Origin: an uncultured delta proteobacterium | GTDB lineage: Bacteria; Desulfobacterota; Binatia; Bin18 | NCBI GenBank assembly: GCA_963733195.1 | Contig: CAVTCR010000057.1 | Location: forward strand, 2,589-66,588 | DNA: 64,000 nucleotides | Direction of reading: 5' to 3' | Shown: piece after piece, positions 1 through 64,000 of the stretch | Layout: each line of letters begins with the position of its first letter | Numbering within the stretch: position 1 is the stretch's first letter | Translations under genes and position numbers: made by a program | The notes under the pieces: generated by a model | Databases searched by the model: none | What the model was told of the DNA's origin: nothing | Seen by the model: the letters and a program-made list of their open reading frames with translations, nothing else

Positions 1-829
1 TTTTTGTTCGAGGTTCTGCATCTTATGAAACCAACACCGAATCCGTAACGACTTGGGCCACATCGTGTCGATGGCTTTAGTCAGCCCCAACGCCCCATCC
101 GTGGTAATTGTCACCGGGGGCTGCATGCCACGCTTGACCAAGTCCCGCAGCACTTCCACACAACTCTCATAACTCTCACTATTGGTAAGGGAGAGGCTGA
201 GGAGCACTTTGCGCCCGTCCTCACAGATTGCCCACACACAGAGGACGCCAGTTTTCTGCCCCCACCGCCGTAACGGTTCGTACACGGTATCAATAAAGAG
301 GTAGGCTACCGGCTCGTGGCTGAGATCCCGCGTACGAAACGCTTCGTATTCCTCCGTTAAACTCTCGGCAATGTCACTGACCGTGCTTTTGGACAGGACA
401 AACTGCCCCACTGCTTGCTCTAAGCCGTACTCAATATCCCGTTGTGACATCCCGCCCACATACATCTCCACAATTAATTTCCTGAGCACGTCACTGGTAT
501 TGCCCACGTTGCCCCACAATTGCGAGCGATACGCGTCCTGCTGTCCGCGAATCTGTGGCACTTTGACATGCAGCACCCCTTCGCCCGTTTTCAGCGTCCC
601 GGTCTCATAGCCATTGCGATAGCCCACCTTCTCGCCACGGGCTTCGTACCGTCCGCGCCCTAAGGCCACCGCTTGTTCCTCCTCCAACGCTTCTTGCAAA
701 ATCCGTTCGGTCGACAGTCGCACCAACAAACTCAATAACTCTTCTCCACTTTGCCCGTTGGCCTGGCCTTGCAGTAAGGCACGGAGTGCCTGGGCCTTTT
801 GCTCACTTGGTGCTATCCTCTTCTCCATA
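1..829 (-). mobile_element. IS256-family (mutator-type) transposase gene, 5' part; runs off window edge
   Basis: Reverse-strand translation from ATG at 829 reads MEKRIAPSEQ...GYRNGYETGTLKTGEGVLHVKVPQIRGQ...RCWFHKMQNLEQK without a stop to position 1. GYRNGY and RCW.HK..N motifs are typical of IS256 transposases. Not in the ORF track because it has no stop inside the window. Confidence 0.8.
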
Positions 830-901
830 CGGGAGTCCTCCTTCTTCTTGGTGGTTAATCGTCTTCACAATCTGATTACCTACCGCAGAAGTGTCTCCCG
901 T

Positions 902-2268
902 CTACTCCCCTCCGGTTACAGGGATTCTAGGACATAACCCTCGTTCGCCAAATGCCACCAGCGCCTCCGCGCGCTCCTGGGCGATGCGTCCGTCCCCGCG
1001 CGCTAGATGAAACAAGGTCGCAAGCATTAAGGCATGCCCGAGACTAAAAGGCTGGCCGAGCTCCCGCGCCAAGTGTACCGCCTCGTACATCCGCCTCAGG
1101 GATTGATCGGGAAACCCCAGAACCCAGAGGGTCCGAGCTATATTGGCGAGACTCACAACCTGCGGGTTGAACCCTCCGTAGAGGGACGCCAGCGCTTGGT
1201 GCTGAGGCTGGTAGAGCGCTAAGCTCTGCTCCAGCGCCCCCCAGCACGGACAAACTCCCCGCGAAATAGGCAGGTTGTCCCTACGGCAACGTGTGCTTCG
1301 AGGAGCAACCCAGCGTCGTTCGTCTGCTCTGCGACCTGTAAGCACTCCTCTGCCAGCGCCTGCGTCATGCGCAGCTCGCCCCGGATCAGGTGAAACACCC
1401 AAAGGCCCCACAGCGCCGGAAAGCGCTGTAGGGAGTCACCCAGTTGGGCACACAACGCGCGGGCACGGCGGTAGTATTGTTCCACCGCTGGTGCGGTATA
1501 CCCTTGAGCGGCCATGAAGGCTGGTCCCAGTGCGAGTTGCAGCGTGAGTTCCTGCGCGGCCCGTTCTGGCGTCTCTGGGCGCGTCATGAGCAGCTCCAGT
1601 GCTGCATTGAGCTGGCTGATCGCTTCGAGGTTGGCTGAGCGTTGCACCGCTTGTTGTCCGGCCAAGTGGAGATACTCGATGGCCTTCTCTGTGTTGGCAC
1701 TCCGCCGGTAATGATGGGCCAAGTCACTGTAGTGCTCAGGGAGTGTCGCGGCGTACACGGTTTCGAGCCCCTGACCGGTGCGCTCGTGGAGCACTTTGCG
1801 TTGCTCCTGCAGTACCGTGCCGTACGCCACCTCCTGCGTCAGCGCATGCTTGAAAATATATTCGACTTCGGGAAAGGCGGGTTGCTCATAGAGAAACTCC
1901 TTGCGCTGCAACGAGGCCAGCAGGCGATACAGCTCTGCTTCGGGTTGAGCAATGACCTGGCGGATCACGCTCATCGGGAATTGCCGACCAATGACGGAGA
2001 GCCGCTGGAGCAGGGCTTTTTCATCCGGGGCTAAACGATCAATGCGCGCGGCGAGGACGCCTTGGACGGTGGGCGGAATATGAAGGTCGGTAGGGGCGCT
2101 GCTTGCTGCGCCCTCGGTGGGCAGGGCAAGCCCTGCCCCTAAAGCATCGCGGACCAATACTCCCTGCTCCACTAGCTCCTGCACGATCTCTTCTATGAAG
2201 AACGGCGTACCTTCGGTTTTGTCTAGGATGAGGTGTTTGAGGGCGGGTAGGGGCGCACCAAGGTGCAC
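902..2268 (-). pseudogene. 3' portion (AAA ATPase and TPR region) of a large cyclase-ATPase-TPR regulator, cut off from its 5' part by an IS4 insertion and frameshifted
   Basis: ORFs 1219..2268 and 902..1411 overlap in different frames. Motifs HLILDKTEGTPFFIEEIVQELVEQGVL and LAARIDRLAPDEKALLQRLSVIG are typical of LuxR/AfsR-like AAA+TPR regulators. The 5' border abuts the IS4 inverted repeat at 2268. Confidence 0.6.
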
Positions 2269-3722
2269 TGGTCACAACTTAACGAAGGAGGATGAGAGCG
2301 TGACAGCGGAAGGAGATGCCGAAGGGAAGGTGGTACGCTATCTTCTGCCTACCCCAAGCCAGGAGGTAGGAGATGGCCAAACGCCGCCCGCGGCAGCATC
2401 ACAATCCCGATTTTCGGCACCGCGTCCCCGGACCGCTGCCCGCCGTGGCGGAGATTGAGGCGGAGCTCTTCGCGTTGCTCACCCCGGCATTGCTGGCACC
2501 CCGCCAATTGGAACGGTCTGACCCGCGCAATCCCCAGCGGCGCATTCGGCTGCGGGCGCGGATTTTGACGTTGCCGGTGATGGTGGCGCTGGTCGTGAGT
2601 TTGGTCTGGCGGCGGTTGGGCTCGATTGCGGAGGTCCACCGCGTGTTAGTCCAAGACGGGTTGCTATGGGTGTCGCCCCTGCAGGTCAGTGAACAAGCAA
2701 TCGCCAAGCGACTCGATACGCTGCCCGCCAGTGCACTGGCGACCCTCTTCACAGAGGTAAGTGCACGGTTGCAAGCCCAGCCCCCACCGCAGTTACCCGG
2801 GCTGGAAGGCTGGACGGAGATGCGCAAGCAGTTTCCGCGCGTTGCGATGGTGGATGGCTCGACGCTGGAAGCAATTCGGAAAAAGACGCAGACGCTGCAA
2901 GCTCAGCCCGGTCTCGTGCTCGCGGGCCGGATGATGGTGATGGTCGAAGCCTTTACCCATCGCCCCCTGTGGCAACTCTATACCGAGGAGGCAGCGGCCA
3001 ATGATAAACGCTTTGCCCCGGAGATTCTGACGGCGCTTCCAGAAGGGGGATTGCTGATTTTTGACCTGGGCTTCTTCAGCTTCTTGTGGTTTGATGACTT
3101 CACGGAGCAACACAAGTATTTTGTGACCCGCCTACGGCAAAACACGGCGTACCGCACCACGCACGTGCTCAGTCACGGCCCGTACTACCGGGACGAACTC
3201 ATTGAGGTGGGCCTCTACCGCTCCAATCCCTGTCGGCATCCGTTACGCCTAGTCTCCGTGTTGTGGCACGGGCAGTGGTATCGCTACCTCACCAACGTCC
3301 TCGACCCCGCTCAGCTCTCCGCGCGGCAGGTCTGTGAGCTGTATCGCCGCCGCTGGCGCATTGAAGATGCCTTCTTGGTGACTAAACGCGTGCTTGATCT
3401 CGCCTACCTCTGGAAAGCCTCGGCCAATGGCATGCAGCTCCAACTCTATGCCACGCTTCTCTTCTACCTTGTCCTCCTCCATGTCTGCCAGCAGGTCGCG
3501 CAGAGTCTCAACGAACCCTTGGAGCAGATCTCGGTCGAGATGGTTTTTCGCGCCTTCTATCACTATAGTCGCGCCCTCACGCGAGGCGAGACCCTAGAGT
3601 TGGTGCCGTACCTGGTCCACCATGCGAAGCTCTTAGGTCTCGTCAAACGTCGCCGCCAGCGCCATCGCGAGATCCAGCAAACCGAGCAATAGTGTGGGGC
3701 TGTCCTTAAGTTGTGACCAGTG
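2268..3722 (+). mobile_element. IS4-family insertion sequence with 17-bp terminal inverted repeats
   Basis: CACTGGTCACAACTTAA at 2270-2286 and its reverse complement TTAAGTTGTGACCAGTG at 3706-3722 flank the transposase ORF. Confidence 0.75.
2373..3692 (+). CDS. IS4-family DDE transposase
   Basis: 439 aa. The C-terminal signature Y-x2-R-x3-E-x6-K (YRRRWRIEDAFLVTKR) is characteristic of the IS4 family. Confidence 0.85.
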   Translation: MAKRRPRQHHNPDFRHRVPGPLPAVAEIEAELFALLTPALLAPRQLERSDPRNPQRRIRLRARILTLPVMVALVVSLVWRRLGSIAEVHRVLVQDGLLWVSPLQVSEQAIAKRLDTLPASALATLFTEVSARLQAQPPPQLPGLEGWTEMRKQFPRVAMVDGSTLEAIRKKTQTLQAQPGLVLAGRMMVMVEAFTHRPLWQLYTEEAAANDKRFAPEILTALPEGGLLIFDLGFFSFLWFDDFTEQHKYFVTRLRQNTAYRTTHVLSHGPYYRDELIEVGLYRSNPCRHPLRLVSVLWHGQWYRYLTNVLDPAQLSARQVCELYRRRWRIEDAFLVTKRVLDLAYLWKASANGMQLQLYATLLFYLVLLHVCQQVAQSLNEPLEQISVEMVFRAFYHYSRALTRGETLELVPYLVHHAKLLGLVKRRRQRHREIQQTEQ

Positions 3723-4818
3723 TATTGCAATACGCCCCTACGAATTCATGGAACAACCGCGACTTGCCTAACCCTGGCTCCCCCATTACGCCGACGACTT
3801 GGCCGTGCCCGGCTTTGGCTTGTTCCAACGCTACCTTCAGCTGTTCCATCTCGCTCTGCCGTCCGACAAACCGTGTTAGCCCTCGTCGTGCTGCTACTTC
3901 AAACGCGTGCGTAAGGCTCCCACACCCAGCACTTCGTAGATGTGCAGCGGTTCCTCTACTCCCTTAATCTGCGTGGGGCCCAGCTCCTTGAACGCAAAGT
4001 AGCCATCGGTGAGACGATGCGTGTAGGTTGAGACGACGATCGTGCCGGGAGTGGCGAACTGTTCCATGCGCGCCGCTAGGTTGGTCGAGTGGCCCACCGG
4101 CACGTAGTCCGCATGCAAGTCGTCTTTACGAATCGAGCGTAGCACCACTTCGCCTGTGTTTACCCCTACCCGCATCAACAGCGGGCGGATAGCCCTTTCG
4201 CCGCGTAACGTATCCGCATAGCGCCGCATTTCTTCTTGCATGCGTAGCGCGGCATAGAGCGCGCGTTGGGGATGATCTTCATGGGCCAGCGGCGCGCCGA
4301 ACAGGGCAAAGATGCCATCCCCCAAGGCTTGCGCGACATAGCCCTCATACTGATGTATGGCGTCCATCATGAGCTGCAGCGCAGGATCAATAATCGCCCG
4401 CGCCTCTTCGGGATCGAGTCCTTCGATCAACGCCGTCGAGCCTTTGAGATCGGCAAAGAGGGCCGTAATCGTCTTGCGTTCACCCTCCGTCAGCGAGACC
4501 GCACGAATGCGCTCGGCCAGATGGGCAGGCGTGTAGTCGATGGGTCTAGGGTCTGGGTCTGGTGTCTCGCGTCTGGGGACGGGGAGGCTTTGACTCTGGA
4601 CTCTGGACCCTAGACTCTGGACTGCTTTGACCGACCCACACCAACACTTTACCATCCTCATCTACAGCGAGTCGCTTGGCCTCTATGATTTCGGCAGTGA
4701 GGTCCGCAAGATAATCATCCTCCAAATCAAAGCGCCGCTTCAACGCGCGATACGTCACCCGCCCGTCTCGTTGTAAGAGACCAATGATTTGTGCAAGCAG
4801 ATCATCGAACGTTGGCAT
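3723..4818 (-). pseudogene. 5' portion of the same regulator gene: N-terminal domain, low-complexity linker, class III nucleotidyl cyclase domain, start of AAA domain
   Basis: ORF 4546..4818 (MPTFDDLLAQIIGLLQRDGRVTYRALKRRF...) shifts frame inside a GGGTCT/GGACTCT tandem repeat (4541-4640) into ORF 3894..4661, which holds the cyclase domain (ITALFADLKGSTAL...GDGIFALFGAP). After a TAG at 3891 the reading continues in another frame as FVGRQSEMEQLKVALEQAKAGHGQVVGVMGEPGLGKSRLFHEF (AAA Walker A) up to the IS4 end. Confidence 0.6.
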
Positions 4819-5144: not shown

Positions 5145-5964
5145 ATGGCAGAAACTAACATCAGTTTTTCTGGTTCCATTCCGCAAATGTACGATCGCTA
5201 TCTCGGCCCGGTGCTGTTTGAGCCCTATGCTGCCGATCTTGCCCGCCGCGTAGCTATGTCCATGCTACTGGTCCAGTGTTGGAAATGGCTTGTGGCACTG
5301 GCATTGTCACTCAACAGTTACGTGCTCACCTTGCCCCTGAGATTGAGATCGTTGCCACCGATCTTGAGTCAGCCGATGCTCGACTATGCGCGGACAAAAT
5401 TGCCAACGCTGAAGAATGTGACTTGGCGACAAGCAGATATTGCGGCCTTGCCATTTGCGGATGCCGAATTTTCTGCCGTGGTGTGTCAATTCGGCTTGAT
5501 GTTTGTACCCGACAAGCAAGCTGCCTTTCGTGAAGTCCGTCGGGTGTTACGCAAAGGTGGGGTGTTCGCTTTTAACGTGTGGGACAGTATGGCTGCCAAT
5601 CCCTACACCCAGCTCATTCAGGAGACACTTGCCAAAATATTCCCGGTAGACCCGCCGCAATTTTTCACGGTGCCCTTTAGCCTTCATGATCGTGAAGACG
5701 TTGCGACAGTTACTGACTACGCATGACTTCAGTGACGTACAGCTTGAGACCGTAACGCTAGAGGCGCGCAGCGAGAGTGCCAAAGCCCTTGCTACCGGAT
5801 TCATTCAAGGCTCGCCGCTGAGTACCGCGATTCAAGAGCGCGGGGCGTCCTTCGAGTCCGTCATTGAGGCGGTGACGGAAGCCTTAGCGCAGCATGGTGG
5901 CGCAGCACCGTTTCGCTCAACTATGCAAGCAGTGGTTGTGACTGCACGAGCAGGCGCAGTGTAA
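5145..5964 (+). pseudogene. Class I SAM-dependent methyltransferase with at least three frame changes
   Basis: Three overlapping ORFs (5145..5726, 5276..5533, 5686..5964) together give YDRYLGP...LEMACGTGIVTQQL (motif I)...ALPFADAEFSAVVCQFGLMFVPDK...LRKGGVFAF. No single frame spans the gene. Confidence 0.55.
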
Positions 5965-8266: not shown

Positions 8267-8458
8267 AGGTGATGGAACGTAAGCTCACCGCTATAGTGAG
8301 CTAGGCCGAGACGCAGGAGGCACGAGCTGAGGTGGCAGAACTCCTGCGGATTAGCCCTAACTTTCTCTCTGGAAGGAGTGAAACGGGTGAGTGTCTTCAA
8401 AAATCCAGATGACTTAGAGCGCTGGCTTGCTGCCCTGCGCAAGGCGGGACTTAAATAA
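8267..8458 (+). pseudogene. Collapsed remnant of a cyclase/TPR family gene: first ~8 codons fused to last ~50 codons
   Basis: ATGGAACGTAAGCTCACCGC (MERKLTA, the family N-terminus) is joined directly to GCTATAGTGAGCTAGGCCGAG...CTGCGCAAGGCGGGACTTAAATAA. This matches the 3' ends of the paralogs at 30100-30273, 22440-22637 and 11600-11769. Confidence 0.5.
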
Positions 8459-8461
8459 ATG

Positions 8462-9341: not shown

Positions 9342-11769
9342 ATGCCCACACACACCACGTCGGGTGGCATGGAACGCAAACTGGCCGCCATCTTTAGCAC
9401 GGATGTCGCAGGCTACAGCCGCCTCATGGGCGACGATGAAGAAGCAACCATCCGCACCCTCACAGCCTATCGCGACTGTGATCTCCTCCCTCATCCAGCA
9501 CATCGTGGCCGAGTGGTCGATTCCCCGGTGATAATCTGCTGGCCGAGTTCGCCAGTGTGGTCGATGCCGTGCGCTGCGCGGTCGAAATCCAACACGCACT
9601 CAAAGTGAAGAATGCCGAGTTGCCTGAACATCGGCAAGATGCAGTTTCGCATCGGCATCAACCTGGGCGATGTGATCGTCGAAGGCGAGCGGCTCTACGG
9701 CGATGGGGTCAACATCGCCGCGCGACTGGAAAGCTTAGCGATCCCGGCGGTATCTGTATCTCTGGGACGGTCTACGACCATGTCGAGAACAAACTTGCGC
9801 TGAACTACGAGTATCAGGGCGAGCAGACGGTCAAGAACATCGCCAAGCCGGTGCGAACGTATCGGGTAGTGATGGATGAAGCCGCAGCGGCCCTGGCCGA
9901 GCAAGCCGTGCTTCGACAAGCTCAGCACCGTAGCCCAGATGAAGCGCAGCGGAATCTCGGAAACACACCGGGTCCTGGATTGCGCTCCGCTCCATCCAGG
10001 CTACTTCCTGTGCCCGCGATGGGACATGTGGCAGGGCTGCTGCTCATCGCGGCAGCAATCGTAACCGTATGGTATATTTCTCGTTCCCCACTCAGTCCTC
10101 AGTCCTCAGCACTCAGTCCTGACGCCGCGCCAGCGGCGCTGCCGCTCCCCGACAAACCCTCCATCGTCGTCCTGCCCTTCGACAACATGAGTAAAGATCC
10201 CGCGCAGGACTACTTCAGCAACGGTATCACCGAAGTGCTCACCTCTGACCTCTCCCGCATCTCCAGCCTCTTCGTCATCGCCCGCAACACGGCCTTCACG
10301 TACCAGGGGAAAGCGGTGAATATCCAAGCCGTGGGGAAAGAACTGGGCGTACGGTACGTCCTGGAAGGCAGCGTCCAGAAGGCGGGGGAGCAAATCCGGA
10401 TCGTGACCCAGTTAATTGATACCACGACCGGCGGGCACCTGTGGTCGCAGCGCTACGACCGTCCGCTGCAAGACCTCTTCGCGCTCCAAGATGAGATCGT
10501 GCAGAAGATCGTGACCACGCTGAAGCTGCAGCTCACGTTGCAAGAGCAAGGGTACGTCGTGCGCAAACACACCGACAACCTGGAGGCCTACGATGCCTTC
10601 TTGCGCGGGCTGGAGTATCATTTACCGCTTCACGAAAGAGGCCAATGCCCAGGCGACGGCAGCTGTTTGAGAAAGCCATTGCGCTGGACCCACAGTATGC
10701 GGAGGCGTACGCGTTGCTGGGTTAGACCTACTGGATAGAGTGGGTCTTTCGCTGGAGCGCGGACCCCCAGACCATGGAGCGTGCGTTGGCGCTCGCGCAA
10801 CAGGCTCTTGCCCTGAATGATTCCCTGCCGACAGCCCATTCGCTCTTGAGCATCGTCTATGCCCAGAAACAGCAGTATGACCAAGCTATAGCCGAGGGCG
10901 AACGGGCGGTCGCTCTCGATCCCAACTATGCGGACAGCTATGCCGTACAGGCGGAGGTGCTGAACTTCGCGGGCCGGCCAGAGGAGGCTCTGCAGTCAGT
11001 GGAGCAGGCGATGCGGCTCAACCCCCGCTGTCCACCCTGGTACTTATACTAGGTTGGGCTTGGCCTACCGCATGACCGGGCGGTATGCCGAGGCGATCGC
11101 CACGCTGAAGGAAGTCATCAGCCGGGACCCCAATTTTATCTATGCCCACCTTCAGCTGGCTGGCAGCTACCTATGGCAGTGGATCGCTCAACAGAGCCCA
11201 GCTGCCCAGACGTTGGAGCCGGCAGTGGCGGCGGGGCAACGGGCCCTGGCCCTCAATGACTCCCTCCACTGGAACCACATAGTCTTGGGCTCTATCTATC
11301 TCTACCAACAGCAGTATGACCAGGCCCTGGCGGAGATGGAGCGGGCCGTGGCCCTCGCTCCTACTGAGGCGGGGAGCTATGCGGCTCTGGCGGAGGTGCT
11401 GAGCTATATGGGCAGGACGGAGGACGCCCTGGAGGCCGCCGCACAGGCGCTGCGCCTGAAGCCCATTATTGTGGACGCCCACTTAGACAGCGTCGGCGCT
11501 GCCTATGCCGTGGCCGGGCGGCCACGAAGAGGCGACTTGCCCCCTTGCAGCGTTATATCAGCCGCTATCCCAACATACTGCGCTGCCCATCTCATGCTGG
11601 CAGCGGTCTACAGCGAGTTAGGCAAAGAGCCGAGGCGCGAGCCGAGGTCGCAGAAGTGCTGCGGCTCAATCCTAAGTTCTCACTGGAGGTTCACAAGAGA
11701 GAATGCCGATCAAAGATCCAGCGGTGTTGGAGCGGCATATTGCGGCGTTGCGCAAGGCAGGACTCAAAT
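9342..11769 (+). pseudogene. Cyclase family paralog 1: class III nucleotidyl cyclase - TM - TolB-N-like periplasmic region - TPR; multiple frameshifts
   Basis: ORFs 9198..9608, 9557..10738, 10774..11052 and 11054..11815 are in different frames. Motifs: MERKLAAIFSTDVAGYSRLMGDDEEATIRTL; LPLPDKPSIVVLPFDNMS...YFSNGITE...RYVLEGSVQKAGEQIRIVTQLIDTTTGGHLWSQRYDRPL; TPR repeats. Ends at the conserved ...RKAGLK stop. Confidence 0.7.
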
Positions 11770-11770
11770 A

Positions 11771-11990
11771 ATGGAGAGTGGAGAATTGAAAATTAAGAAT
11801 GGGGAAACAAGCTGAAGGCTGAAGGCTGGAGGGGGAAATGAAGAGAGATGAAGGGAAAACGAAGAATTAAAAGTGATAAAGAATGAATGCGGAATGATGA
11901 ATACATTAGTAGTCAGTAGGCTCAGAATGCTGAATTATGAATGCAGAATGATGAGTGAAAGAAAAACTCGTGATCTTCCATTCATCGTTC
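11771..11990. repeat. GA-rich repeat block with an internal inverted copy (hairpin-capable)
   Basis: GAATGAATGCGGAATGATGAATAC ... TTCCATTCATCGTTCATCATT are inverted partners. GGCTGAAGGCTGGAGG units are also present. Confidence 0.5.
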
Positions 11991-17929: not shown

Positions 17930-18905
17930 CTATTTTCTTTTGATAGTGAAGCAGGCCGCCAGCTCTTCCACCGTGAGCGCGCGGCAGGGTTGCCCTTCCC
18001 AGGCGGTGATCGTTTGGGCCAGCTCGACGATCTGTGGCGCCTTGAGGTGCGTAGCGGCGAGAATCTCAGGTCGATAATAGGCTTCGGCAAGCGAAGCATC
18101 GAGCAGCACGCGGCCCTGGCCCAGCACCAGCACCCGTTCGGCAAAACCAGGCAGAAGATGGAGATGGTGCGTGATAGCGATCACTGTCTTCCCGGCTGTG
18201 TGGAGTTGACGCGTCAGTTCGAGAATGCGCATGGCGCCCTGGTAGTCTTGTCCAGTAGTCGGCTCATCGAAGATCAAGATTTCCGGCTCTCTAATCAAGG
18301 TCGCCGCAAGCACCACACGACCACGGTCACCTTTAGACAGGGCGAACGGGTGGAGGTCGCGTTGCCTGGTCAGATCCATCGCTGCCAGCGCATCGTCCAC
18401 CCGGCGGTGAACCTTGCTCGGCGGCAGTCCCGCCTGCTCCAAGGCAAAGCCGACTTCTGCGGCGACACTGAAGGTGAAAAGCTGTGTGTCCGGGTTCTGG
18501 GGCACAAAGCCAATCCGTTGCGATATGTCACCAACGGCGAGGTTTTCCAGACGACTTCCGTCGAGGGTCAGGATGACCGGCGCTCGGCCCCAGCAAACCG
18601 AGGAAGCTGCGCACGAGCGTGGTCTTGCCGGCGCCATTCTGCCCAACGATGGCGACATAGTCGCCCGCACGGATGTCGAGCGTGACACCAGCGAGCGCGC
18701 GGGTTCCGTCAGCATAGGTGTATGTGAGATCTTGGGTAGCAAGGCGCACGGCCCCACGACGGCTTGGTGTCGCGGTGACCGTCTGCGGATGGAAATCCAG
18801 GGAGTGGCGCACCGCTTCATACGTGGACAGCGCCCCTGGCAGAGTGACCGGGAGAGAGTCGAGCACAAGTCCGCGTTCCCGCAGGCAATGAAAAAATGCA
18901 GTCAC
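17930..18905 (-). pseudogene. ecfA: ECF transporter ATPase EcfA (second ATPase), frameshifted
   Basis: ORF 18528..18905 carries Walker A (GQNGAGKTTL). ORF 17930..18868 carries the ABC signature region, Walker B (ILIFDEPTTGQD) and H-loop. The two are in different frames. Confidence 0.65.
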
Positions 18906-18927
18906 TTGGGGCGGGCGTATGCGATGG

Positions 18928-19653
18928 TTAGTCAGGAATGTCGACGTCCTGAAAGAATTGGCGAGTTGGCGCCACGCGGATGAGCCGACCGTTGTCCAGC
19001 AACGCCACTCGGTCGGCGAACTCCGCGACCTCCTCGCTTTGATGGCTGGCCACGATAACGGTTATCCCCAACTCACGGTTGAGCGTGCGGATCAGGGCGA
19101 ATACCTCGGCCGCACCCACCGGATCGAGCTGCGAAGTTGGCTCGTCGAGGACCAGGAGCCGGGGTTTAAGGGCCAGGGCCGCGGCGATCGCGAGACGCTG
19201 CTTTTGCCCACCTGATAGTGCATGGGGGTGTTTCTTTTCCAGGCCCGCGAGCCCGACCGCCGGCAGAGCCTCGTCGATGCGCTTTCGTATCTCGGCGGTT
19301 TTGAGGCAGAGGTTTTCCAGGGCAAAGGCAACCTCGTGTTCGACCGACGTGGCCGTGAGCTGCATCTCCGGATCCTGAAAGACGATGCCCACCGTGCGAG
19401 CGAGGGTGCTGACCGGATGAGCAAGCGTATCCAGGCCGGCTACCCCCACGGTGCCGTACAGCTCTCCGCCAAAGAACTGCGGGACAATCCCCGTCAGAGC
19501 CAGACACAGCGTAGTTTTGCCTGCGCCGGTCGCTCCCATGAGCGCGAGACACTCCCCTTGTTCGACCGTGAAACTGACGTCACGCAGGGCCAGCGACGGC
19601 GCCCCAGGATAGCGGAAGGATAACCGATCAACATGGACAATCGGCTCAGCCAT
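18928..19653 (-). CDS. ecfA: ECF transporter ATPase EcfA (first ATPase)
   Basis: 241 aa. Walker A GATGAGKTTL, signature LSGGQKQRLAIA, Walker B LLVLDEPTSQLD. Confidence 0.85.
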   Translation of the reverse strand: MAEPIVHVDRLSFRYPGAPSLALRDVSFTVEQGECLALMGATGAGKTTLCLALTGIVPQFFGGELYGTVGVAGLDTLAHPVSTLARTVGIVFQDPEMQLTATSVEHEVAFALENLCLKTAEIRKRIDEALPAVGLAGLEKKHPHALSGGQKQRLAIAAALALKPRLLVLDEPTSQLDPVGAAEVFALIRTLNRELGITVIVASHQSEEVAEFADRVALLDNGRLIRVAPTRQFFQDVDIPD

Positions 19654-20691: not shown

Positions 20692-22637
20692 ATGGAGCGC
20701 AAACTCACTGCCATTCTCAGTGCCGATGTCAAAGGCTACAGCCGCCTCATGGGCGAGGATGAGGAGGCCACCATCCGCACCCTCACGGCCTATCGGCGAA
20801 GTGATGACTACGCTGATCCAGCCAGCATCGCGGCCGGGTCGTCGACTCGCCCGGCGATAACATGCTGGCCGAGTTCGCCAGCGTGGTGGATGCCGTGCAA
20901 TGCGCAGTCGAAATCCAACAAGACGCTCAAAGTCAGAAAATGCGGAGTTGCCGACCGATCGCAAGATGGAGTTTCGCATCGGCATCAACTTGGGCGATGT
21001 GCTTAGTCGAGGGCGAGCGGCTCTATGGGGACGGGGTCAACATCGCCGCACGGTTAGAAGGCTTAGCCGAGCCGGGCGGCATTTGCATCTCGGGCACGGT
21101 GCACGAACAAGTCAAGAACAAGCTGGCCTTGCAGCTACGAAGATCTGGGCGAACAGCAGGTCAAGAACATCGCCGAGCCGGTGCGGGTGTGGCGGGTACG
21201 ATGGGAGACGGCAATCAAAGGCAGAGGACTCGGCAAATCAAAAGGCAAAAGGCACAAGGGCAAAAGACAGAAAAAGTTGTCAGTCGTCAGTTCTCAGTTG
21301 TCAGTCCCCAGCCCCCACGCCGAAGCCGAATCGCACTGATTATCATAGGACTTCTCATTGCTGTCGGGGTCTTGGCCTTCTCGTTTCTTTCCCCATTCAT
21401 CACTCATCATTCATCACTCATCACTCAGGAGGCGCAGCCTCCGTCGCTGCCCTTGCCCGACAAACCCTCCATCGTCGTGCTGCCCTTCGTCAACATGAGC
21501 GAAGATCCCAAGCAGGAGTATTTCAGCGACGGGCTCACCGAGGACCTCACCTCCGCTCTCTCGAAGATCTCCAGCCTGTTCGTCATCGCTCGCAACTCGG
21601 CCTTCACCTACAAAGGCAAAGCGGTGAAAGTGCAAGACGTGAGCAAGGAGTTGGGCGTGCGGTATGTGCTGGAAGGCAGTGTGCGCAAGGCTGACAACCA
21701 GGTGCGGATCACGGCGCAGTTGATCGATGCCACCACCGGCGGTCACTTGTGGTCCGAGCGTTACGACCGCCCCCTACAGGACATCTTTGCCCTGCAAGAT
21801 GAGGTCGTACAGAAGATCGTGACGACGCTGAAACTCCAGCTCACGTTGCAGGAGCAAGGGATTCTGGTGCGCAAGACCACGGACAACCTGGAGGCCTATG
21901 ACTACTACTTGCGCGGGAGGGAGCATTTTAATCGCTTCACGCAAGAGGCCAATGCGCAGGCCCGGCAGATGTTTGAGAAAGCCCTTGAGCTGGACCCACA
22001 GTATGCGGAGGCGTACGCCTTCCTGGGTTGGACCTACTTTAGGGAGTGGGGCTTGCAATGGAGTCAGGACCCCCAGACCCTGGAGCAGGCGTTTGCGCTG
22101 GCGCAAAAGGCCGTGGCCCTGGATGACTCCCTACCCCAGGCCCACGTGGTATTGGGCGCTGTCTATCTGTGGAAAAAGCAGCATGACCAGGCCATCGCCG
22201 AGGCAGAGCGGGCCATTGCCCTCGATCCCAACTATCGCTGAGGCTATGCGTGGCTGGGGGAGATCTGAACTGTGCGGGGCGGCCGGAGGAAGCCATCGGG
22301 TTGATAGAGAAGGCGATGCGCCTCAACCCCCATTATCCGCCTTTCTACTTATTCTTCTTAGGCGAGGCCTACCGCTTGACGGGGCGGTATGAGGAGGCGA
22401 TTGCAGCTTACAAGAGAGCCCTCACCCGCAACCCCGATTTTCTGCCTGCCCACCTTACCTGGCTGCCATCTACAGTGAGTTGGGCCGGGAGGAGGAGGCC
22501 CGGGCGGAGGTGGCAGAAGTCCTGCGGATCAAGTCCCAAGTTCTCTCTGGAGGTTTTGAGGCAGAGGCTCGCCCTATAAAGATCCAGCGGTATTAGAGCG
22601 CATTCTTGCCGCCCTGCGCAAGGCGGGGCTGAAGTAA
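20692..22637 (+). pseudogene. Cyclase family paralog 2: class III cyclase - TM - TolB-N-like - TPR; frameshifted in the cyclase domain and the C-terminal TPR
   Basis: ORFs 20692..21006, 20862..22241 and 22250..22579. MERKLTAILSADVKGYSRLMGEDEEATIRTL. TM plus LPLPDKPSIVVLPFVNMSEDPKQEYFSDGLTEDL...RYVLEGSVRKADNQVRITAQLIDATTGGHLWSERYDRPL. Conserved ...LAALRKAGLK stop. Confidence 0.7.
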
Positions 22638-26746: not shown

Positions 26747-26805
26747 ACTCCACCCGTAGCGGAGTACAGGTCGGGTGATTCAGTCGCTTACCGTCAATTT
26801 CTTGA

Positions 26806-27339
26806 TCAAACGGACACGCCGAGATGGCGACGAGACAATCCATCAAAGCTTTCAGGGCAATATACTCCCCCGCCTGGCCGCGGCGGGCTGGTAATTAATC
26901 GTGCCGTCCGCCTTCGGTCGCGTATTTTGAAACAGATTGACTGGGTCGGGATATCGAGATACCCCAGTCCATACGGAGTGACTGCCTGTGTGAGATTATC
27001 GCGGCAGTTGCGATGTGTCGGATCGCCCGCCGTGGCGGCATAGAGGGCGCTGCTGCACGGAGCAAACTGCAAATCATGCACGCCCTTGGCCAAATCTTCG
27101 ACAATCTCAAACATGGGGTTTTGCAGATTGGAGTAGAACTTACTCCCGACCGTCAAGTGGATGGAGCCGCTCCCTGCCAGGGAGTTGAAGTTCACGGTCT
27201 CACCCGTGGAGAGTTTCTCCCGCGGTTGATGCAGGTTGAAACAAACGAAGTCACCGATCTGGTGTCCCTCGACGTCAATGACCTTGATCGTCTCACCCCG
27301 TCGGACTACAAACGCAGCTCCTTCAGTAGCGGGAATCAC
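26806..27339 (-). CDS. DUF1989-like (urea-carboxylase-associated family) protein, C-terminus possibly disrupted
   Basis: FVVRRGETIKVIDVEGHQIGDFVCFN...EKLSTGET pattern. The C-terminal 40 aa are low-complexity and look out of frame. Confidence 0.5.
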   Translation of the reverse strand: MIPATEGAAFVVRRGETIKVIDVEGHQIGDFVCFNLHQPREKLSTGETVNFNSLAGSGSIHLTVGSKFYSNLQNPMFEIVEDLAKGVHDLQFAPCSSALYAATAGDPTHRNCRDNLTQAVTPYGLGYLDIPTQSICFKIRDRRRTARLITSPPRPGGGVYCPESFDGLSRRHLGVSV

Positions 27340-27410
27340 TAGATGTTGTTCTCTCGGGCATGGTACTGTCCTCCTCTGGCGTTTCTATGGGCGATGCTTC
27401 TGGATCCCTC

Positions 27411-28276: not shown

Positions 28277-30273
28277 ATGAAGGTGCCTACGCATACATCG
28301 GTTGGCATGGAACGCAAGCTCGCGGCGATCTTCAGCACCGATGTCGCGGGTTACAGTCGCCTCATGGGCGACGATGAAGAAGCCACCATCCGCACCCTTA
28401 CTGCCTATCGTACACTGATTTCCTCCCTGATCCAGCAGTACCGTGGCCGGGTGGTCGATGCGCCCGGCGATAACCTGCTGGCCGAGTTTGCCAGTGTGGT
28501 CGATGCCGTGCGCTGTGCGGTCGAGATCCAACACGCACTTAAAGAGAAGAACGCCGAGCTACCTGAGCATCGCCAGATGCAGTTTCGCATCGGCATCAAC
28601 TTGGGCGATGTGATTGTCGAGGGCGAACGACTTTATGGTGATGGCGTCAACATCGCCGCGCGGCTGGAAAGTCTAGCGACCCCGGGCGGCATTTGTATCT
28701 CAGGGACGGTGTATGACCAGGTCGAGAACAAACTGGTGCTGAACTACGAATATCAGGGCGAGCAGACGGTCAAGAACATCGCCAAGCCGGTGCGGGTGTT
28801 TCGCATCCTGCTAGAGTCCGATGCTGCTTCCTCAGACAATCAAGCCGTGCTTCGACACGCTCAGCACGAACGGACACCGACTCCGGTCACCCTGAGTCCT
28901 TCGACAAGCTTCGAGGACAGGCTTTATCGAAGGGTGCTCAACTGAAACGCAAGGGGGGACTGTTGCTGGCTGGGCTGCTGCTCATCGTGGCAACAATCGT
29001 AGCAGTCCGGTATTTTTCTCGTCCACCTCTCAGTCCTCAGCCCTCAGTACTCGTCACTGAGGAGGCGAAGCCTCCGTCGCTTCCCTTGCCCGACAAACCC
29101 TCCCTCGTCGTGCTGCCCTTCGTCAACATGAGCGGAGACCCCAAGCAGGACTATTTCAGCGATGGCATCACTGAAGACCTCACCACGGCCCTCTCGCAAA
29201 TTTCCAGTCTGTTCGTCATCGCCCGCAACTCCGCCTTCACCTACAAGGGCAAAGCCGTCAAGGTGCAGGACGTCGGGCAGAGAACTGGGCGTGCAGTACG
29301 TGTTGGAAGGCAGCGTGCGCAAAGCCAACGACCAGGTGCGGATCACCGCGCAGTTGATCGATGCGGCGACAGAGTCTCACCTCTGGGCGCAGCGGTATGA
29401 CCGTCCACTGAAGGACATCTTTGCCCTGCAAGACGAGATCGTGCAGAAGATCGTGACGACGTTGAAGCTGCAGCTCACCTTGCGGGAGCAAGGGTACCTG
29501 GTGCGCAAGACCACGGACAACCTGGAGGCCTATGATGCTACTTGCGTGGGCTGGAGGCATGGAACCGCTACACGAAAGAGACCAATGCCCAGGCCCGGCA
29601 GCTGTTTGAGAAAGCGATTGCGCTGGACCCGCAGTATGCCGAGGCGTACGCGAGGCTGAGTCGAACACTCTCCACGGAGTGGGTCTATGGCAATGGAGTC
29701 AGGATCCTCAGACGCTGGAGCGCGCGTTGGTCCTGGCGCAACAGGCCGTTGCCTTGGATGACTCCTTGCCTGGAGCCCATGAGGTATTGGCTTTTGCCTA
29801 TCCCTATAAAAAACAACATGAGCAAGCCATTGCGGCAGCCAAGCGGGCCATTGCTCTTGCTCCCAATGACGCGGAGGGCTATGCGAATTTGGGGCACATT
29901 TTGATCTTTGCCGGGCAGCCAGAGGAAGCCATTGAGCTTGATCGAGAAGGCGATGCGCCTCAACCCCCGCTATCCGTTCCACTACTTATCCTTGCTCGGC
30001 ATGGCCTATGTCTTGGCGAGGCGGTATGAGGAAGCGCTCGCAGTCCTGCAGAGCGCCACCTCTCCGCAACCCCAATTTTCTGCCTCCTCATCTTCATTTG
30101 CTTGTCAGCTATAGTGAGCTAGGCCGAGATGCGGAGGCCCGAGCTGAGCTGGCAGAACTCCGGCGGCTCAATCCCAATATTCTCTCTGGAGTGGTATAGG
30201 CGGGTGATGCTTCAAAGATCCAGCGGACTTGGAGCGGTATCTTGCCGCCCTGCGCAAGGCGGGGCTGAAATAA
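28277..30273 (+). pseudogene. Cyclase family paralog 3: intact class III cyclase domain ORF (222 aa) followed by frameshifted TM - TolB-N-like - TPR part
   Basis: ORF 28277..28945 has a complete cyclase domain (MERKLAAIFSTDVAGYSRLMGDDEEATIRTL...GDGVNIAARLESLATPGGICISGTVYDQV). ORFs 28963..29400, 29162..29659, 29679..30029 and 30008..30199 continue the TM/TolB-N-like/TPR part in shifting frames. Conserved ...LAALRKAGLK stop at 30271. Confidence 0.7.
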
Positions 30274-31237: not shown

Positions 31238-31369
31238 TTGACGGGCAGACGGGGCCGGCAGGATAATCGCCTGCGGTGAAGGGTACACATGGAACGCGAG
31301 CTCACCGTGATCCTGAGCGTTGATGTCGAACGCTACAATACGCGTAGTGTTCCAAGTAAAATACATTAA
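31238..31369 (+). pseudogene. Remnant of a cyclase family gene: promoter (TTGACG-N18-GATAAT) plus 26-codon N-terminal stub
   Basis: TTGACG 31238-31243, CAGCAG, GATAAT 31262-31267, ATCGCCTGCGGTGAAGG as in paralog 2, then ATGGAACGCGAGCTCACCGTGATCCTGAGCGTTGATGTC (MERELTVILSVDVERY...) ending at a stop after 26 codons. Confidence 0.45.
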
Positions 31370-34037: not shown

Positions 34038-34710
34038 TTAGCGCGCAGAAATCTGCACCAATGTCTCTCGCAGCTTTGCTGCAATGTCCTTGGCAAGAAC
34101 CAGATCGCTGATCATCGCGACTGCATCTGCACCGGCATTGAGGGTAGCGGGAGCGCGTTCAGTGGTGATCCCACCAATCGCCACGATTGGTAAGCGTACT
34201 ACAGCACGGATTGCACGCAACTGATCAAGGCCACGAGCTAGTGTAGCCGGTGGCCTTGGTGGTTGTGCCGTACATTGGACCGAACCCGATATAGTCCGCA
34301 CCGTCACGTTCGGCAGTTTGTGCTTGTTGTGGATCATGGGTAGACACGCCGATAATCCTATGTGGGCCGAGTACTTTGCGTGCGGCTGTAAGGGGGAGAT
34401 CTTCCTGGCCGACATGAACTCCGTCGGCATCGACGGCAAGTGCAATGTCTGCCCGATCATTCACGATGAACAAGCATCCAGAGCAACGGCATATCTTGCG
34501 TACTTCTTGTGCGATCACGAGAAAATCGCGGGACGGAACGTCTTTCGCCCGCAGTTGCAGTATCTTCGCCCCACCAGCACAGAGCTTTTCGGCGATCGCG
34601 ACGAACGATAACTCCGATCGGCCAAGTGTGTCGGCGATGGTGTAGAGAGGGCTTGGGAACGAAAAAAGGGGTCGGGGGTCGGGGGTCGGAGGTCGGTTTT
34701 GTTCATTCAT
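34038..34710 (-). pseudogene. thiE: Thiamine-phosphate synthase ThiE, frameshifted
   Basis: ORF 34225..34710 (...IVNDRADIALAVDADGVHVGQEDL...IGFGPMYGTTTKA) and ORF 34038..34460 (...LDQLRAIRAVVRLPIVAIGGIT...GADAVAMISDL) overlap by 235 nt in different frames. The N-terminal 15 codons are encoded by the G-rich repeat. Confidence 0.75.
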
Positions 34711-58272: not shown

Positions 58273-58413
58273 GCCATCCGTTTCTCCATGTCCTCTGCTT
58301 ACCAACTCTGACACCGAAATACCACCGAAATAGCACCGTTTTGTTATGACTGCACACGCGGAGCAGTGCATAGTCTCCCTGACAGGCAGGATCTCACACC
58401 TAGGGGATGACCT

Positions 58414-59762: not shown

Positions 59763-59942
59763 CTCGATTCACGACAATTCTTCCAGCAGCGCCTTCGCCT
59801 CTTGCAAATCCTTCGTTATCAACTTCCCTGGATGCTCAACGAGATAACGCAGCACAGCGAAGGTCTTAGGCCGTAAAGCGATTGCCTGGTCATCGCGCCA
59901 GAGCTGTTCGCTGCTCAGGTCCAACCGAAAGGGTGGGAAGTA
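59763..59942 (-). pseudogene. Second truncated copy of the winged-helix N-terminal fragment (59 codons)
   Basis: MYFPPFRLDLSSEQLWRDDQAIALRPKTFAVLRYLVEHPGKLITKDLQEAKALLEELS*. Same upstream motif as the 58066-58272 copy. Confidence 0.5.
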
Positions 59943-60074
59943 CATCTCCTACCTGTCTCCATGCCCGCTTCTTATCATACCTTGACATCGAAATACCACC
60001 GAATGAGCATCGTTTTGGCATGACTGTGCGCCTCGCTTTCGCTATGCTTCGAGGAGCAGAAAGGAGTCGCCACT

Positions 60075-60518
60075 ATGAGCAATATCCGTATCATCCTCGA
60101 TCCCCACGCTCCGGACAGTAGCAAACAATTTGTTCAGATCGCCCTCGACTTGTATAACGTGGCGGTCACTGGACTGGCAGAGTACTACCCCGTCGCGATC
60201 TTTCTCAAGCGCGACAACGAGGAGATTGTTGGCGGCGTGCTCGGCGACATTTGGGGCATGTGGTTACATGTGACGTATCTGTGGGTTGCGGTGCCACTCC
60301 GTCACCAAGGCTATGGCAGCCAATTGCTCCTTGCGGCAGAGCAATACGCGATTGAACGGGGCTGCCAGAACGTCCATCTGGAAACCTTCAGCTTCCAGGC
60401 ACGCCCCTTGTACGAGAAGCACGGTTATGAAGTCTTTGCGCAACTTGATGATTTTCCCCCAGGGCACACGAAGTATTTTCTACGCAAGCAGTTAGGTGGT
60501 AGAACAGCGTCTGTGTGA
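60075..60518 (+). CDS. GNAT-family N-acetyltransferase
   Basis: 147 aa. AcCoA-binding motif (VAVPLRHQGYGSQLL) and a C-terminal Tyr region. Confidence 0.8.
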   Translation: MSNIRIILDPHAPDSSKQFVQIALDLYNVAVTGLAEYYPVAIFLKRDNEEIVGGVLGDIWGMWLHVTYLWVAVPLRHQGYGSQLLLAAEQYAIERGCQNVHLETFSFQARPLYEKHGYEVFAQLDDFPPGHTKYFLRKQLGGRTASV

Positions 60519-60547
60519 CGTACGTTGAATCAAGGAGGGGTAGCTCT

Positions 60548-60790
60548 ATGGACCACACTGTATTTGCCCTGGAACCCTATCTCAAACAGTTGTACTTTTC
60601 CGGCAGCCTCCAACCGACCGAGGATGGGCTTGAGGCACTCCACCGCGCAAGCCTACACGATTCCCTTCGAGAATTTCGATATTTTGCTGGGGCGTGGCAT
60701 TACGCTCGAACCGGCAATGATTTACGACAAGCTCGGGGGCACACTCAGGGCGAACGGAAAATGTATCACGAAAAGTGAAGGAAAGTGCGA
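60548..60790 (+). pseudogene. Arylamine N-acetyltransferase (NAT) 5' fragment, frameshifted and truncated
   Basis: LEPYLKQLYFSGSLQPTEDGLEALHRA in one frame, ...IPFENFDILLGRGITLEPAMIYDKL in another. Only about 80 codons are present before the convergent MFS gene. Confidence 0.45.
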
Positions 60791-60807: not shown

Positions 60808-62128
60808 TTAGTGCTGCGTTTTTGCCTGCTCCATCATGGAGGCAACGACAACTGCTGCCGTTCCCACAAGAGCGATCCCCCCAGCACAGAGATACATGGT
60901 TGAAAAATCGGTTCGCTGCAGTACCTGCCCAAGGCCGATAGCGCTCAGTCCGACCCCGATGTCAAACGCCATCATCAAGGTTGCGAGCGCAGGACCACGA
61001 TCGTGGATGGTGGAACGGTCGACAATCCACGCCATAATTGCCGGATGCACAGCGCCAAAGCCGATCCCCTGCAAAACCGCAGTCCATAACAACCCGGCCA
61101 TTGATGTCGTATATGCTAAGACAACCATCGATACCGCGAGAAAAAACATGCCAGGAATAATTACCGCAGAGCGGCCAAAGCGATCAGACAGCCGACCAGA
61201 TAACGGGCGGAGAACAACAACGACGATCGAATAGACAGTAAAAAAGAGGCCAGCATTGCCGAGATTATGGTGTTGGACAAACAACGGGAGAAACGAAACG
61301 ATCGCACCAAAGGTCATCGTCATACACATGGCAATAAAGCCAGGAAACAAGGCCACACGGCTAAAGAGTGCTGGTCGGGCAGCTGCGGGTTGACCGGCCA
61401 TGCGCGCGAGACTGATGTGGATCATGGACTAGTTGCACTAACAGTAAGCACGCCAGCGCAAGACCGGCAGAAGTCCAGAAGAGACCAGCGAAACCCAACC
61501 AGCCAGCAAGAGTGATACCTAACGCGGGACCAATCGCCATGGACAAATTCATTGCCATGCCGTAATAACCCATCGCTTCGCCACGCCGGGCTGGAGGCGC
61601 GAGGTCAGCAATAAACACACTGCCGGCAGTCGTATAAATGGCAATTCCGATGCCATGAAAGAATCTCAGCGCAAGCATGACAGGTACTGATGTGGCCTGA
61701 GTGTAGAGGGCGGAGAAGATAACGTAGATCAACGCGCCGAGTGCCAAGCAGGATTTGCGGCTCCACGTATCTACGAGCCGGCCCGAAAGCGGGCGACTGA
61801 GTACCGCAGAAACCGCAAATGCCCCCATAATCATGCCAACTTGTGATTCTGCGCCGTGCAACTCTTGGACAACAAACAACGGCAAGACTGCGAACAGCAA
61901 GAACATACTGCCCGAAAAAAGAAAGGTACTGAGACACACCAGCAAGAAATCGCGCGTGAACAGCGCTTCCGGCTCTGCGGAAGGTGTAGCGATTTGCGGT
62001 TGCGGAGTGTGTGGTGAAAGAGATTGGGCAGGTTGAGACACTGCGGGTGAGTGTATCTGTGGCTCTGTGGTGAAACAAGGGACCTTTTTAAATACAGAAT
62101 GTAGAGCAGAATGATGAATAGAATGCAC
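60808..62128 (-). pseudogene. MFS transporter, frameshifted into two half-ORFs
   Basis: ORF 61361..62128 has the N-terminal six helices and a Pro/Gln-rich leader. ORF 60808..61425 has the C-terminal six helices. They overlap by 65 nt in different frames. Confidence 0.7.
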
Positions 62129-63074: not shown

Positions 63075-63845
63075 TTAGAGCATGACATCGCCACCATTTG
63101 GGCTGATGCACTGACCGACCATATGGCGTGCTTCGTCAGAAGCGAGAAAGACATACGCTGGTGCGATATCCTCGACCGTCGCGAGGCGACCCTTAGGAAT
63201 ACTAGCGCGAATGGCCTCGATCGTGTCGGTGCTGATCCCGCTGAGGATCGGCGTTTCCGTCGCACCAGGGGCGACACAATTCGCATTGACATTACGGGTA
63301 CCGATTTCGAGCGAAAGCGCACGGGTAAAAGCGATAATGGCGGCTTTTGCGGCGCAATAATGGCTCAGCCCCGGAGCCCCTTTGTAGGCAAGCTGAGAAG
63401 CGGTGTTGATGATCTTGCCGTAGTCCTGTTGATACATAATTGGCAGAACGTAGCGTGTACAGAGAAACACACTGCGAAGATTCGTGGCCAACATTTCATC
63501 CCACATCGCGGAGGTCATACGCTCTATCGTGGAGACGGTAGCGATTCCAGCGTTGTTCACAAGAACATTGATCCTACCGTAGATCCGCATGGTTTTGTCT
63601 ACGAGCCTGACAACCTCGTCTTCTTGTGAAACATCCGCTTGCACAGTAATTGCCCGTTGACCGACGGCAGTGATGGCATTCATCACTGTCGTCGCATTGT
63701 AGGCTTGGGCCTCATTCGGATAATTAATCACTAGATGTGCTCCTTCGTTGGCGAAGGCGAGGGCCACAGCTTTTCCGATGCCACTACTTGAACCAGTGAC
63801 CAGGGCGATTTTGTTGTCGAGCTTGCCCATGATGATCTCCTGCAA
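63075..63845 (-). CDS. SDR-family oxidoreductase (FabG-like)
   Basis: 256 aa. TGSSSGIG cofactor motif, NNAG, catalytic S...YxxxK (YCAAKAA). Confidence 0.9.
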   Translation of the reverse strand: MQEIIMGKLDNKIALVTGSSSGIGKAVALAFANEGAHLVINYPNEAQAYNATTVMNAITAVGQRAITVQADVSQEDEVVRLVDKTMRIYGRINVLVNNAGIATVSTIERMTSAMWDEMLATNLRSVFLCTRYVLPIMYQQDYGKIINTASQLAYKGAPGLSHYCAAKAAIIAFTRALSLEIGTRNVNANCVAPGATETPILSGISTDTIEAIRASIPKGRLATVEDIAPAYVFLASDEARHMVGQCISPNGGDVML

Positions 63846-63880
63846 TCAGCCTTCAGTTCTCAGCTTTCAGTCAAGTCTAA
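63846..63880. repeat. GA-rich repeat family member in reverse orientation
   Basis: TCAGCCTTCAGTTCTCAGCTTTCAGTC is the reverse complement of the CTGAAGGCTGA / ACTGAGA units. Confidence 0.35.
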
Positions 63881-64000
63881 CATGCGGCTATTAACCCCTC
63901 GCTTTCTTCTGCTGAGCGCTGAAAGCTGACGCCTGACAGCTTTTTCACAACGGTTTACTTTTTACCTGAAAACTCGGTAAGACTGTATTGGTCTTATCCC

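Follow-up and report, generated by a model that had tools for sequence, protein, structure and literature searches.

Consensus indels that fragment gene calls have prompted the IDEEL test as well as tools like proovframe, and the spectra of natural bacterial pseudogenes are reportedly deletion-biased and broad in size (Mira et al. 2001; Kuo & Ochman 2009). In Nanopore assemblies and metagenomes, consensus indels give frameshifted gene calls (PMC9262707), and the Microflora Danica soil metagenomes were obtained from Nanopore reads only, with Flye assembly and one round of Medaka polishing (PMC12313526). Here we consider a stretch of 64,000 nucleotides (hereafter the window) of contig CAVTCR010000057.1 (assembly GCA_963733195.1, positions 2,589 to 66,588 of the forward strand), in which a series of genes, among them three cyclase paralogs and the gene of thiamine-phosphate synthase (thiE), is broken by small frameshifts. 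The contig appears to come from an uncultured Candidatus Binatia population, by way of a long-read assembly of a soil or sediment metagenome. We consider it likely, from the sequences compared, that most of the about 47 small frameshifts are residual consensus errors, left where divergent alleles or paralogs were collapsed, and the real genes of the organism at these loci are probably intact; the structural lesions of the window, namely those of a cyclase-ATPase regulator gene, of two cyclase remnants and of an acetyltransferase remnant, and possibly that of one cyclase paralog, are real. We infer the artefactual origin of the small shifts, as well as the sequencing technology and the mechanism of collapse, from the comparison of assemblies.

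An earlier note on this DNA had listed at least ten loci that need more than one frame to encode a recognisable protein, and this is borne out by the lists of open reading frames (ORFs) and by Pfam domains that are split across frames. The frame status of the loci was read from the ORF lists together with Pfam scans of the translated ORFs, and a frameshift-aware protein-to-DNA aligner, written for the purpose, was applied to the cyclase paralogs A, B and C, with the intact homologs P0028 (634 aa) and P0037 (800 aa) as references. The genes concerned are:

9342..11771, plus strand: cyclase-TolB-like-TPR paralog A (alignment to the intact 800-aa P0037, 76% identity)
20692..22637, plus strand: cyclase paralog B (frameshift-aware alignment, 72% identity to a homolog)
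28277..30273, plus strand: cyclase paralog C (alignment to the intact P0028, 80% identity)
830..4818, minus strand: adenylate cyclase - AAA ATPase - TPR regulator gene, here called cycATP (Pfam Guanylate_cyc in 3894-4661; three-frame reading)
5145..5964, plus strand: S-adenosylmethionine (SAM)-dependent methyltransferase gene, in three frames (Pfam Methyltransf_25, 2-45 and 29-97)
17930..19653, minus strand: fused double-ATPase gene of an ECF-type transporter (Pfam ABC_tran, 2-41 and 43-137; homologs P0244, P0251 and P0241)
26770..27408, minus strand: DUF1989 gene (26770-27361) and its upstream spacer (Pfam DUF1989, 3-132 of 168)
34038..34710, minus strand: thiE (Pfam TMP-TENI, 1-132 and 134-179)
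60515..60790, plus strand: remnant of an arylamine N-acetyltransferase (NAT) gene, about 70 of about 260 codons (Pfam NAT, 10-40 of 240)
60808..62128, minus strand: MFS transporter gene (Pfam MFS_1 in both ORFs; one frameshift in the overlap 61361-61425)

Altogether, about 47 small frameshifts and two in-frame stops were found within about 13.7 kb, and none in the other genes, which are about 35 in number, span about 37 kb and are intact with full Pfam coverage; ORF and Pfam checks confirmed as intact the housekeeping genes that had been named as such. With 13, 11 and 8 shifts in three genes and none in about 35 others, the clustering is far from chance. A uniform sequencing error was rejected as an explanation, given the approximately 37 kb of coding sequence that is free of shifts.

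Paralog A (9342-11768) carries 13 single-base frameshifts, eight insertions and five deletions, plus a TAG at 10723. Paralog B (20692-22634) carries at least 11 shifts of 1-2 nt each, plus a TGA at 22239 that is a by-product of a +1/-1 pair spaced by six bases, and paralog C (28307-30270) carries eight shifts and no in-frame stop. The small shifts of cycATP lie at 3899 (-1), in a repeat linker at 4592-4628, around 1230-1290 and around 940; those of the methyltransferase gene are -1 at 5256, +1 at 5363 and +1 at 5695. The ECF double-ATPase gene has two +1 shifts, at about 18939-18945 and at 18578 (alignment to fused homologs), so that the frame break noted at 17930-18905 stands and its extent does not, this being only the second half of the fused gene. 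In the DUF1989 gene we found -1 at 26874, -1 at 26947 and +1 at 27346, and the noisy block exceeds the gene, since three further single-base gaps continue into the non-coding spacer upstream (27377-27408). A single +1 insertion breaks thiE at about 34240 (GCT[A]GTG), within a 9-nt patch that has two further mismatches, one of them at a sibling-variable site. The broken frame described at 60548-60790 is also there (-2 at 60647), in a locus that is itself a truncated NAT remnant.

Using exact look-up of the short proteins GroES, MNT antitoxin and RAYT (REP-associated tyrosine transposase; REP, repetitive extragenic palindrome), we collected contigs of the same species, called siblings below: L141/L155, L143, L144, L145, L148, L150 and L156, which come from five further ENA assemblies whose contig names are of the Flye style. 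Exact look-ups of GroEL, of the Mo-oxidoreductase, of NtrC, of the Rieske protein and of the GNAT protein gave no match. The siblings are 96-98% identical to the window in the core (32.5-48.5 kb) and 88-96% in its accessory part; the contig of the fifth assembly, L143, reaches about 83% and enters only the groEL tally. They span seven of the ten listed loci (A, B, C, cycATP, methyltransferase, DUF1989 and thiE), and an eighth, the NAT remnant, is spanned by the Logan contig L153 (95% identical). A second set, the short-read-style relatives (contigs with MEGAHIT k141_ names and JGI contigs), is about 80-84% identical to the window. A scan of species-representative genomes (GTDB) with PBP1 led to Candidatus Binatia, with a best match of 95% amino-acid identity and with one MFD soil MAG (metagenome-assembled genome), relative L004, among the matches; in these genomes synteny was not kept beyond PBP1-PBP2-DUF1989. 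A scan of metagenomes with the Mo-oxidoreductase returned mostly distant relatives, the useful ones being only L060-L064, and when PBP1 and the ATPase were used to search for siblings of the 18-28 kb stretch, identity reached at most 95% and at most 86%, respectively; the RAYT look-up found one instead. The ERZ assemblies, and the window, may be tied to the Microflora Danica project.

Of the 42 shifts that could be compared with the same-species contigs and L153, about 40 occur in the window alone and two are each common to a sibling. In the siblings, the same genes are either intact (thiE, DUF1989 and C) or hit by different single-base indels of their own. Neither the TAG nor any of the 13 shifts of A is found in L150, whose copy carries about 12 other single-base shifts. 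The three methyltransferase shifts are likewise missing from L150, which has four others there, and the shift at 5695 is also missing from the relative L062; the -1 at 3899 in cycATP is again missing from L150, which has four others in the cyclase domain. Nearly all shifts of B are missing from both of the copies, X and Y, that L156 carries at this position, and six of the seven shifts of C outside the linker are private to the window, L156 having an intact ORF of 666 aa. All three DUF1989 shifts are private: intact orthologs of 209 aa are called in L155, L156 and L151, and also in L140 and L142, where they extend beyond the retrieved sequence, and L001, L002 and L004 have an ortholog that can be read without a break. 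The thiE insertion is missing from L148, L144, L145, L141 and L140, the intact copies in the siblings measuring 217-223 aa, and the -2 in the NAT remnant is private as well, L153 reading this stretch in one frame. As regards inheritance, therefore, the small shifts are shared in two of about 42 cases, and it is the structural lesions (the remnant at 8272-8460 and the NAT truncation) that are found in relatives. That two of five shift sites coincide between A and B was considered as a possible signal and is within chance, about 0.8 being expected by a rough estimate. The cyclases of the JGI relative L151 were tried as orthologs of C and ruled out, as they belong to another N-terminal subfamily, and a suspected further frameshift, by which the PAS and MBL ORFs (22863-24106) would form one gene, was rejected: both genes are intact and adjacent in the window, and the 419-aa PAS-MBL fusion is an error in the sibling L156.

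The sizes of the lesions point in the same direction. All of the approximately 47 shifts are of 1-2 nt, and indels of 3 to 36 nt, together with one of 87 nt, are confined to linkers and spacers; for the 32 events in the cyclases, such a size spectrum has P<=8e-4 even if 80% of natural indels were of 1-2 nt. Insertions and deletions number 27:15 in the window and 26:12 among the private indels of the siblings, counted over 14.3 kb of core (genes and spacers), and the two spectra are indistinguishable (Fisher P=0.81). The private indels of the siblings are mostly single-base and hit groEL, NtrC and HtrA; groEL is broken in four of the five Flye-style sibling contigs versus none of five short-read-style relatives.

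Once the frames are corrected, the differences between window and sibling fall mostly at third codon positions, which argues that the genes are under purifying selection. For the N-terminal 175 codons of A compared with L150, they number 9, 7 and 54 at the first, second and third positions (45 synonymous, 11 non-synonymous), for the cyclase part of cycATP 9, 4 and 52 and for the methyltransferase 10, 7 and 30; the intact Mo-oxidoreductase gives, for comparison, 9, 4 and 83. The codon-position ratios of C, between the window and L141, are like those between paralogs and unlike neutral evolution. In DUF1989, the lineage of the window has 14 specific substitutions in 570 columns versus 23 for L001, thus no excess. 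The relaxed selection expected of pseudogenes was accordingly not found, by third-position bias, by the DUF1989 count or by the two in-frame stops per 47 shifts. A stretch of 270 nt in A holds five shifts and no more than 11 non-synonymous differences, a very improbable outcome of natural decay, for which P is about 1e-6 at a natural indel:substitution ratio of 0.1 and 0.05 at a ratio of 0.2. The density of shifts rises with the divergence between assemblies (Spearman 0.71, P=0.009) and reaches 18 per kb in a block where the protein sequence is fully conserved.

The earlier note had placed the disruptions in paralogous or repeat-containing genes and had considered, in the case of artefacts, near-identical paralogs as their cause. 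The clustering is there, the near-identity is not, as the paralogs in the window are 75-88% identical, and divergence between strains or alleles is a better correlate of the shifts, with B as the one paralog chimera, real or artefactual. At the position of B, the sibling L156 (7815-12760) has two tandem cyclase paralogs, X and Y, between which lie an ORF of 140 aa and a gene for an HNH endonuclease, and B is a mosaic of the two, with X at its 5' end and Y, at 98% identity, in about 21500-21900; it may be a real X/Y recombinant or an assembly collapse. The JGI relative L151 has, at the same position, cyclase fragments surrounding an HNH gene. A plausible course of events is that reads of co-occurring strains, with near-identical flanks and with alleles 5-15% apart, and likewise reads of tandem paralogs, would be piled into one consensus, from which the polisher would yield a mosaic with single-base indels. 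The sites of such collapse would be the sensor adenylate cyclases A, B and C, cycATP, the methyltransferase gene and the DUF1989 block; the single shift in thiE, and probably those in the ECF ATPase and MFS genes, would represent the background error rate of the assembly. Unpolished repeats, as another source of error, are not supported, the IS4-like and RAYT genes of the window being intact.

Several observations weigh against consensus error. Most shifts lie outside runs of four or more, and the long homopolymer is the classical context of Nanopore errors; when the suggestion to look for shifts in homopolymers was followed, runs explained a minority of them, such as the contractions of C5 to C4 at 9522, of G4 to G3 at 26947 and of TT to T at 26874 and 22263. 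In its core genes the window is much cleaner than the siblings, so that the pattern is not accounted for by an assembly of poor quality throughout, and the insertion sequence (IS) and RAYT genes, which are likely to be repeated in the genome, are unbroken. Viewed gene by gene, the shifts leave the neighbours untouched, and selection acting on real mutations would look alike. No sibling contig spans the ECF ATPase gene or the MFS shift, which leaves the two loci outside the comparison. The -1 at 29537 in C is common to L141/L155 and absent from L145 and L156, and the +C at 22236 in B is common to copy X of L156; each is perhaps a real mutation or a systematic error. Finally, the methyltransferase ortholog of L062, an Illumina-type relative (JGI metagenome contig), is broken by a separate -1 in a T5 run (at about 275, window about 5666), the only frameshift found in a short-read-style relative.

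Among the alternatives, the one that survives best, unlikely as we consider it, is genuine recent pseudogenisation, in which all the frameshifts would be real and would have built up in an IS-rich decaying region. Real decay is indeed present in the window, as seen from the following features, in addition to the NAT remnant, the truncation of which is common to L153:

1..828, minus strand: N-terminal 276 codons of a transposase gene, putatively of the IS256 family (mutator-type) as judged by inspection of the sequence (stop-free translation MEKRIAPSEQ...WFHKMQNLEQK, runs off the window start)
2247..3741, plus strand: IS4-like insertion sequence inside cycATP (39-nt imperfect inverted repeats at 2247-2285 and 3703-3741)
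8272..8460, plus strand: remnant of a fourth cyclase paralog (first approximately 8 and last approximately 20 codons)
31257..31369, plus strand: remnant of a fifth cyclase paralog (promoter-like region and first approximately 27 codons; repeat families D19 and D20)

The frame break reported at 830-4818 is thus real as a description, and the gene is in addition cut by the IS4-like element, with an adjacent deletion, and by the IS256-like element, which truncates its C-terminus. The IS4-like element encodes an intact DDE transposase of 439 aa (2373-3692; Pfam DDE_Tnp_1, 3-198 of 200). L150 is without this element and has, instead of the 1.47-kb insert, about 600 nt that are missing from the window; a target duplication was looked for around the element (2247-3741) and none was found, which fits the loss of these 600 nt. 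A complete IS, with inverted repeats and transposase, therefore lies in a recognisable gene and is absent from the sibling, and most of the AAA domain is lost. With two IS insertions and an adjacent deletion, cycATP is a genuine wreck, and it is certainly dead in the window. The remnant at 8272-8460 is collinear in L150, and the relative L061 has the start of a cyclase gene at this position, downstream of the Mo-oxidoreductase gene; this remnant is a genuine internal deletion. The remnant at 31257-31369 precedes a luciferase-like monooxygenase gene, with an ATG match at 31289 and a stop-to-stop ORF from 31370.

Pseudogenisation of the whole set is also favoured by shifts that largely keep to gene boundaries beside intact neighbours, by the two shifts common to a sibling, by the cyclase fragments of L151 (a JGI metagenome contig) and by the methyltransferase frameshift that L062 carries on its own. 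It does not account for the privacy of about 40 of 42 testable shifts, nor for sibling assemblies with different private shifts in the same genes; for thiE, DUF1989 and C, unbroken copies exist in contigs of the species. Nor does it fit a spectrum of 1-2 nt that is insertion-biased and almost devoid of nonsense codons, in genes without relaxed selection and with as many as 18 shifts per kb where the protein is fully conserved. Between the pseudogenes and the artefacts that had both been proposed, artefact thus prevails for the small frameshifts, and pseudogenes hold only for the structural lesions and perhaps for the two shared shifts, at 29537 and 22236, which are perhaps genuine decay.

A mixed origin, in which C, B and cycATP would be true pseudogenes (by a shared lesion or by recombination) overlaid by consensus errors and the other loci would be pure errors, is in our opinion improbable. 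It would make use of the -1 at 29537 that the window shares with L141/L155, of the +C at 22236 shared with copy X of L156, of B as an X/Y recombinant without the HNH module and of the death of cycATP in the window; C, however, is intact as the 666-aa ORF of L156 and has paralog-like, not neutral, codon-position ratios between the window and L141, and the shared sites are possibly systematic basecalling errors. That the shifts are real more generally, either through an indel-specific mutational process on a hypervariable cyclase family or with transcripts corrected by editing or recoding, we regard as highly improbable; were real shifts with correction true, constraint at the protein level would be kept despite a dozen shifts per gene. 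Correction in expression taken by itself, by programmed frameshifting, transcriptional slippage or insertion/deletion RNA editing, is barely credible: the cyclase alignments do show a conserved protein sequence spread over several frames, which is the pattern that first revealed RNA editing in other systems, but the shift sites are not conserved among same-species orthologs, no recurrent motif was seen by eye in the contexts of the cyclase shifts, the same class of shift strikes groEL at random places in sibling assemblies, and short-read-style assemblies yield intact genes. Consensus error at collapsed alleles or paralogs is therefore the explanation that we retain for most of the small shifts, error being indicated along four independent lines: the selection on the corrected frames, the spectrum of the indels, the like indels of the siblings and the location of the shifts.

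The surroundings of these genes show other mobile and variable elements. A RAYT gene (27523-28056, minus strand) is flanked by paired 16-nt palindromic REP-like motifs (CCAGGCAGAGCCTGGG), of which the window has ten copies versus 0.08 expected (27414-28187, 14108-14176, 16796-16863 and 33815-33961); the RAYT segment is missing from the relative L001. In L150, an IS110-family element (DEDD_Tnp_IS110; L150 3554-4924, window about 14094-14192) lies exactly at the REP pair 14108-14176, which suggests a REP-targeted insertion. The variable linker of paralog A (9925-10010) contains a palindromic REP-like stretch (…GGATTGCGCTCCGCTCCATCCAGGCTAC…) without counterpart in B and C, and is also the site of the multi-base indels relative to L150. 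A conserved promoter-like block (TTGACA ... GGCAGGATAATCGCC; 13994-14037, 20641-20684 and 31238-31281) precedes paralog B, the cyclase remnant at 31289 and a glycosyltransferase gene. Two toxin-antitoxin pairs were found, HepT/MNT at 8573-9224 and a TumE-family pair at 59028-59688, the former 100% identical in L150, where the flanking genes differ by 5-12%. A 44-nt repeat is present in three copies (57728-57771, 58309-58352 and 59983-60026), near two truncated remnants of winged-helix (Trans_reg_C) regulators, the ORFs at 58066-58557 and at 59769-59945 on the minus strand, which have the motif FPPF.LDL...LRPKTFAVLRYLVEHP in common and are gene remnants beyond those listed earlier.

The G+C content is about 0.55-0.62 over 1-30 kb and about 0.50-0.54 over 30-64 kb, and this drop, at about 30000, coincides with the point where the variable accessory part gives way to the conserved core with groES-groEL. 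In L060, a JGI contig that is 87% identical, the Mo-oxidoreductase gene (window 6202-8238) stands between the homologs of 30431-31098 and 42705-45890, and this different placement indicates that accessory segments are rearranged among close relatives. The genuine biology of the region is ordinary, namely that of a plastic accessory region in which tandem cyclase paralogs recombine and which carries IS and REP/RAYT elements and toxin-antitoxin pairs.

If read at face value, the window would tell of massive pseudogenisation in a Binatia lineage, with loss of thiamine synthesis, of an ECF transporter and of an entire signalling cyclase family, and the comparison says that this is a misreading. 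Statistics of gene content, auxotrophy and pseudogenes drawn from such MAG contigs would be inflated. In long-read metagenome contigs, clusters of frameshifts follow genes that are paralogous or vary among strains. Even in the absence of reads, such clusters are recognisable by their privacy to one assembly, by an insertion-biased spectrum of 1-2 nt and by purifying selection in the corrected frames.

Compared with known systems, the small shifts resemble the consensus errors of long reads (Nanopore, PacBio CLR), being of 1-2 nt, specific to an assembly and breaking conserved ORFs, with essential genes broken in the sister assemblies. Unlike such errors, they lie mostly outside long homopolymers and are concentrated in strain-variable or paralogous genes beside a clean core, and this concentration would argue for collapsed heterogeneity rather than for plain low coverage. 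The likeness to collapse of paralogs or strains in metagenome assembly lies in B, which joins two tandem paralogs, and in a shift density that follows the divergence between strains; classical repeat collapse within the contig is unlikely, because the paralogs of the window are too far apart in identity (75-88%), and a real recombination deletion between tandem copies would look identical to the joining seen in B. With the pseudogene-rich genomes of bacteria that are IS-laden or became host-restricted recently, such as Mycobacterium leprae, Sodalis and Shigella, the window has in common IS insertions, adjacent deletions, remnants and multiply disrupted genes beside intact housekeeping genes. 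By contrast with those genomes, its small lesions are private, without relaxed selection, rarely nonsense, insertion-biased and at most 2 nt long, and only the structural lesions behave like real decay.

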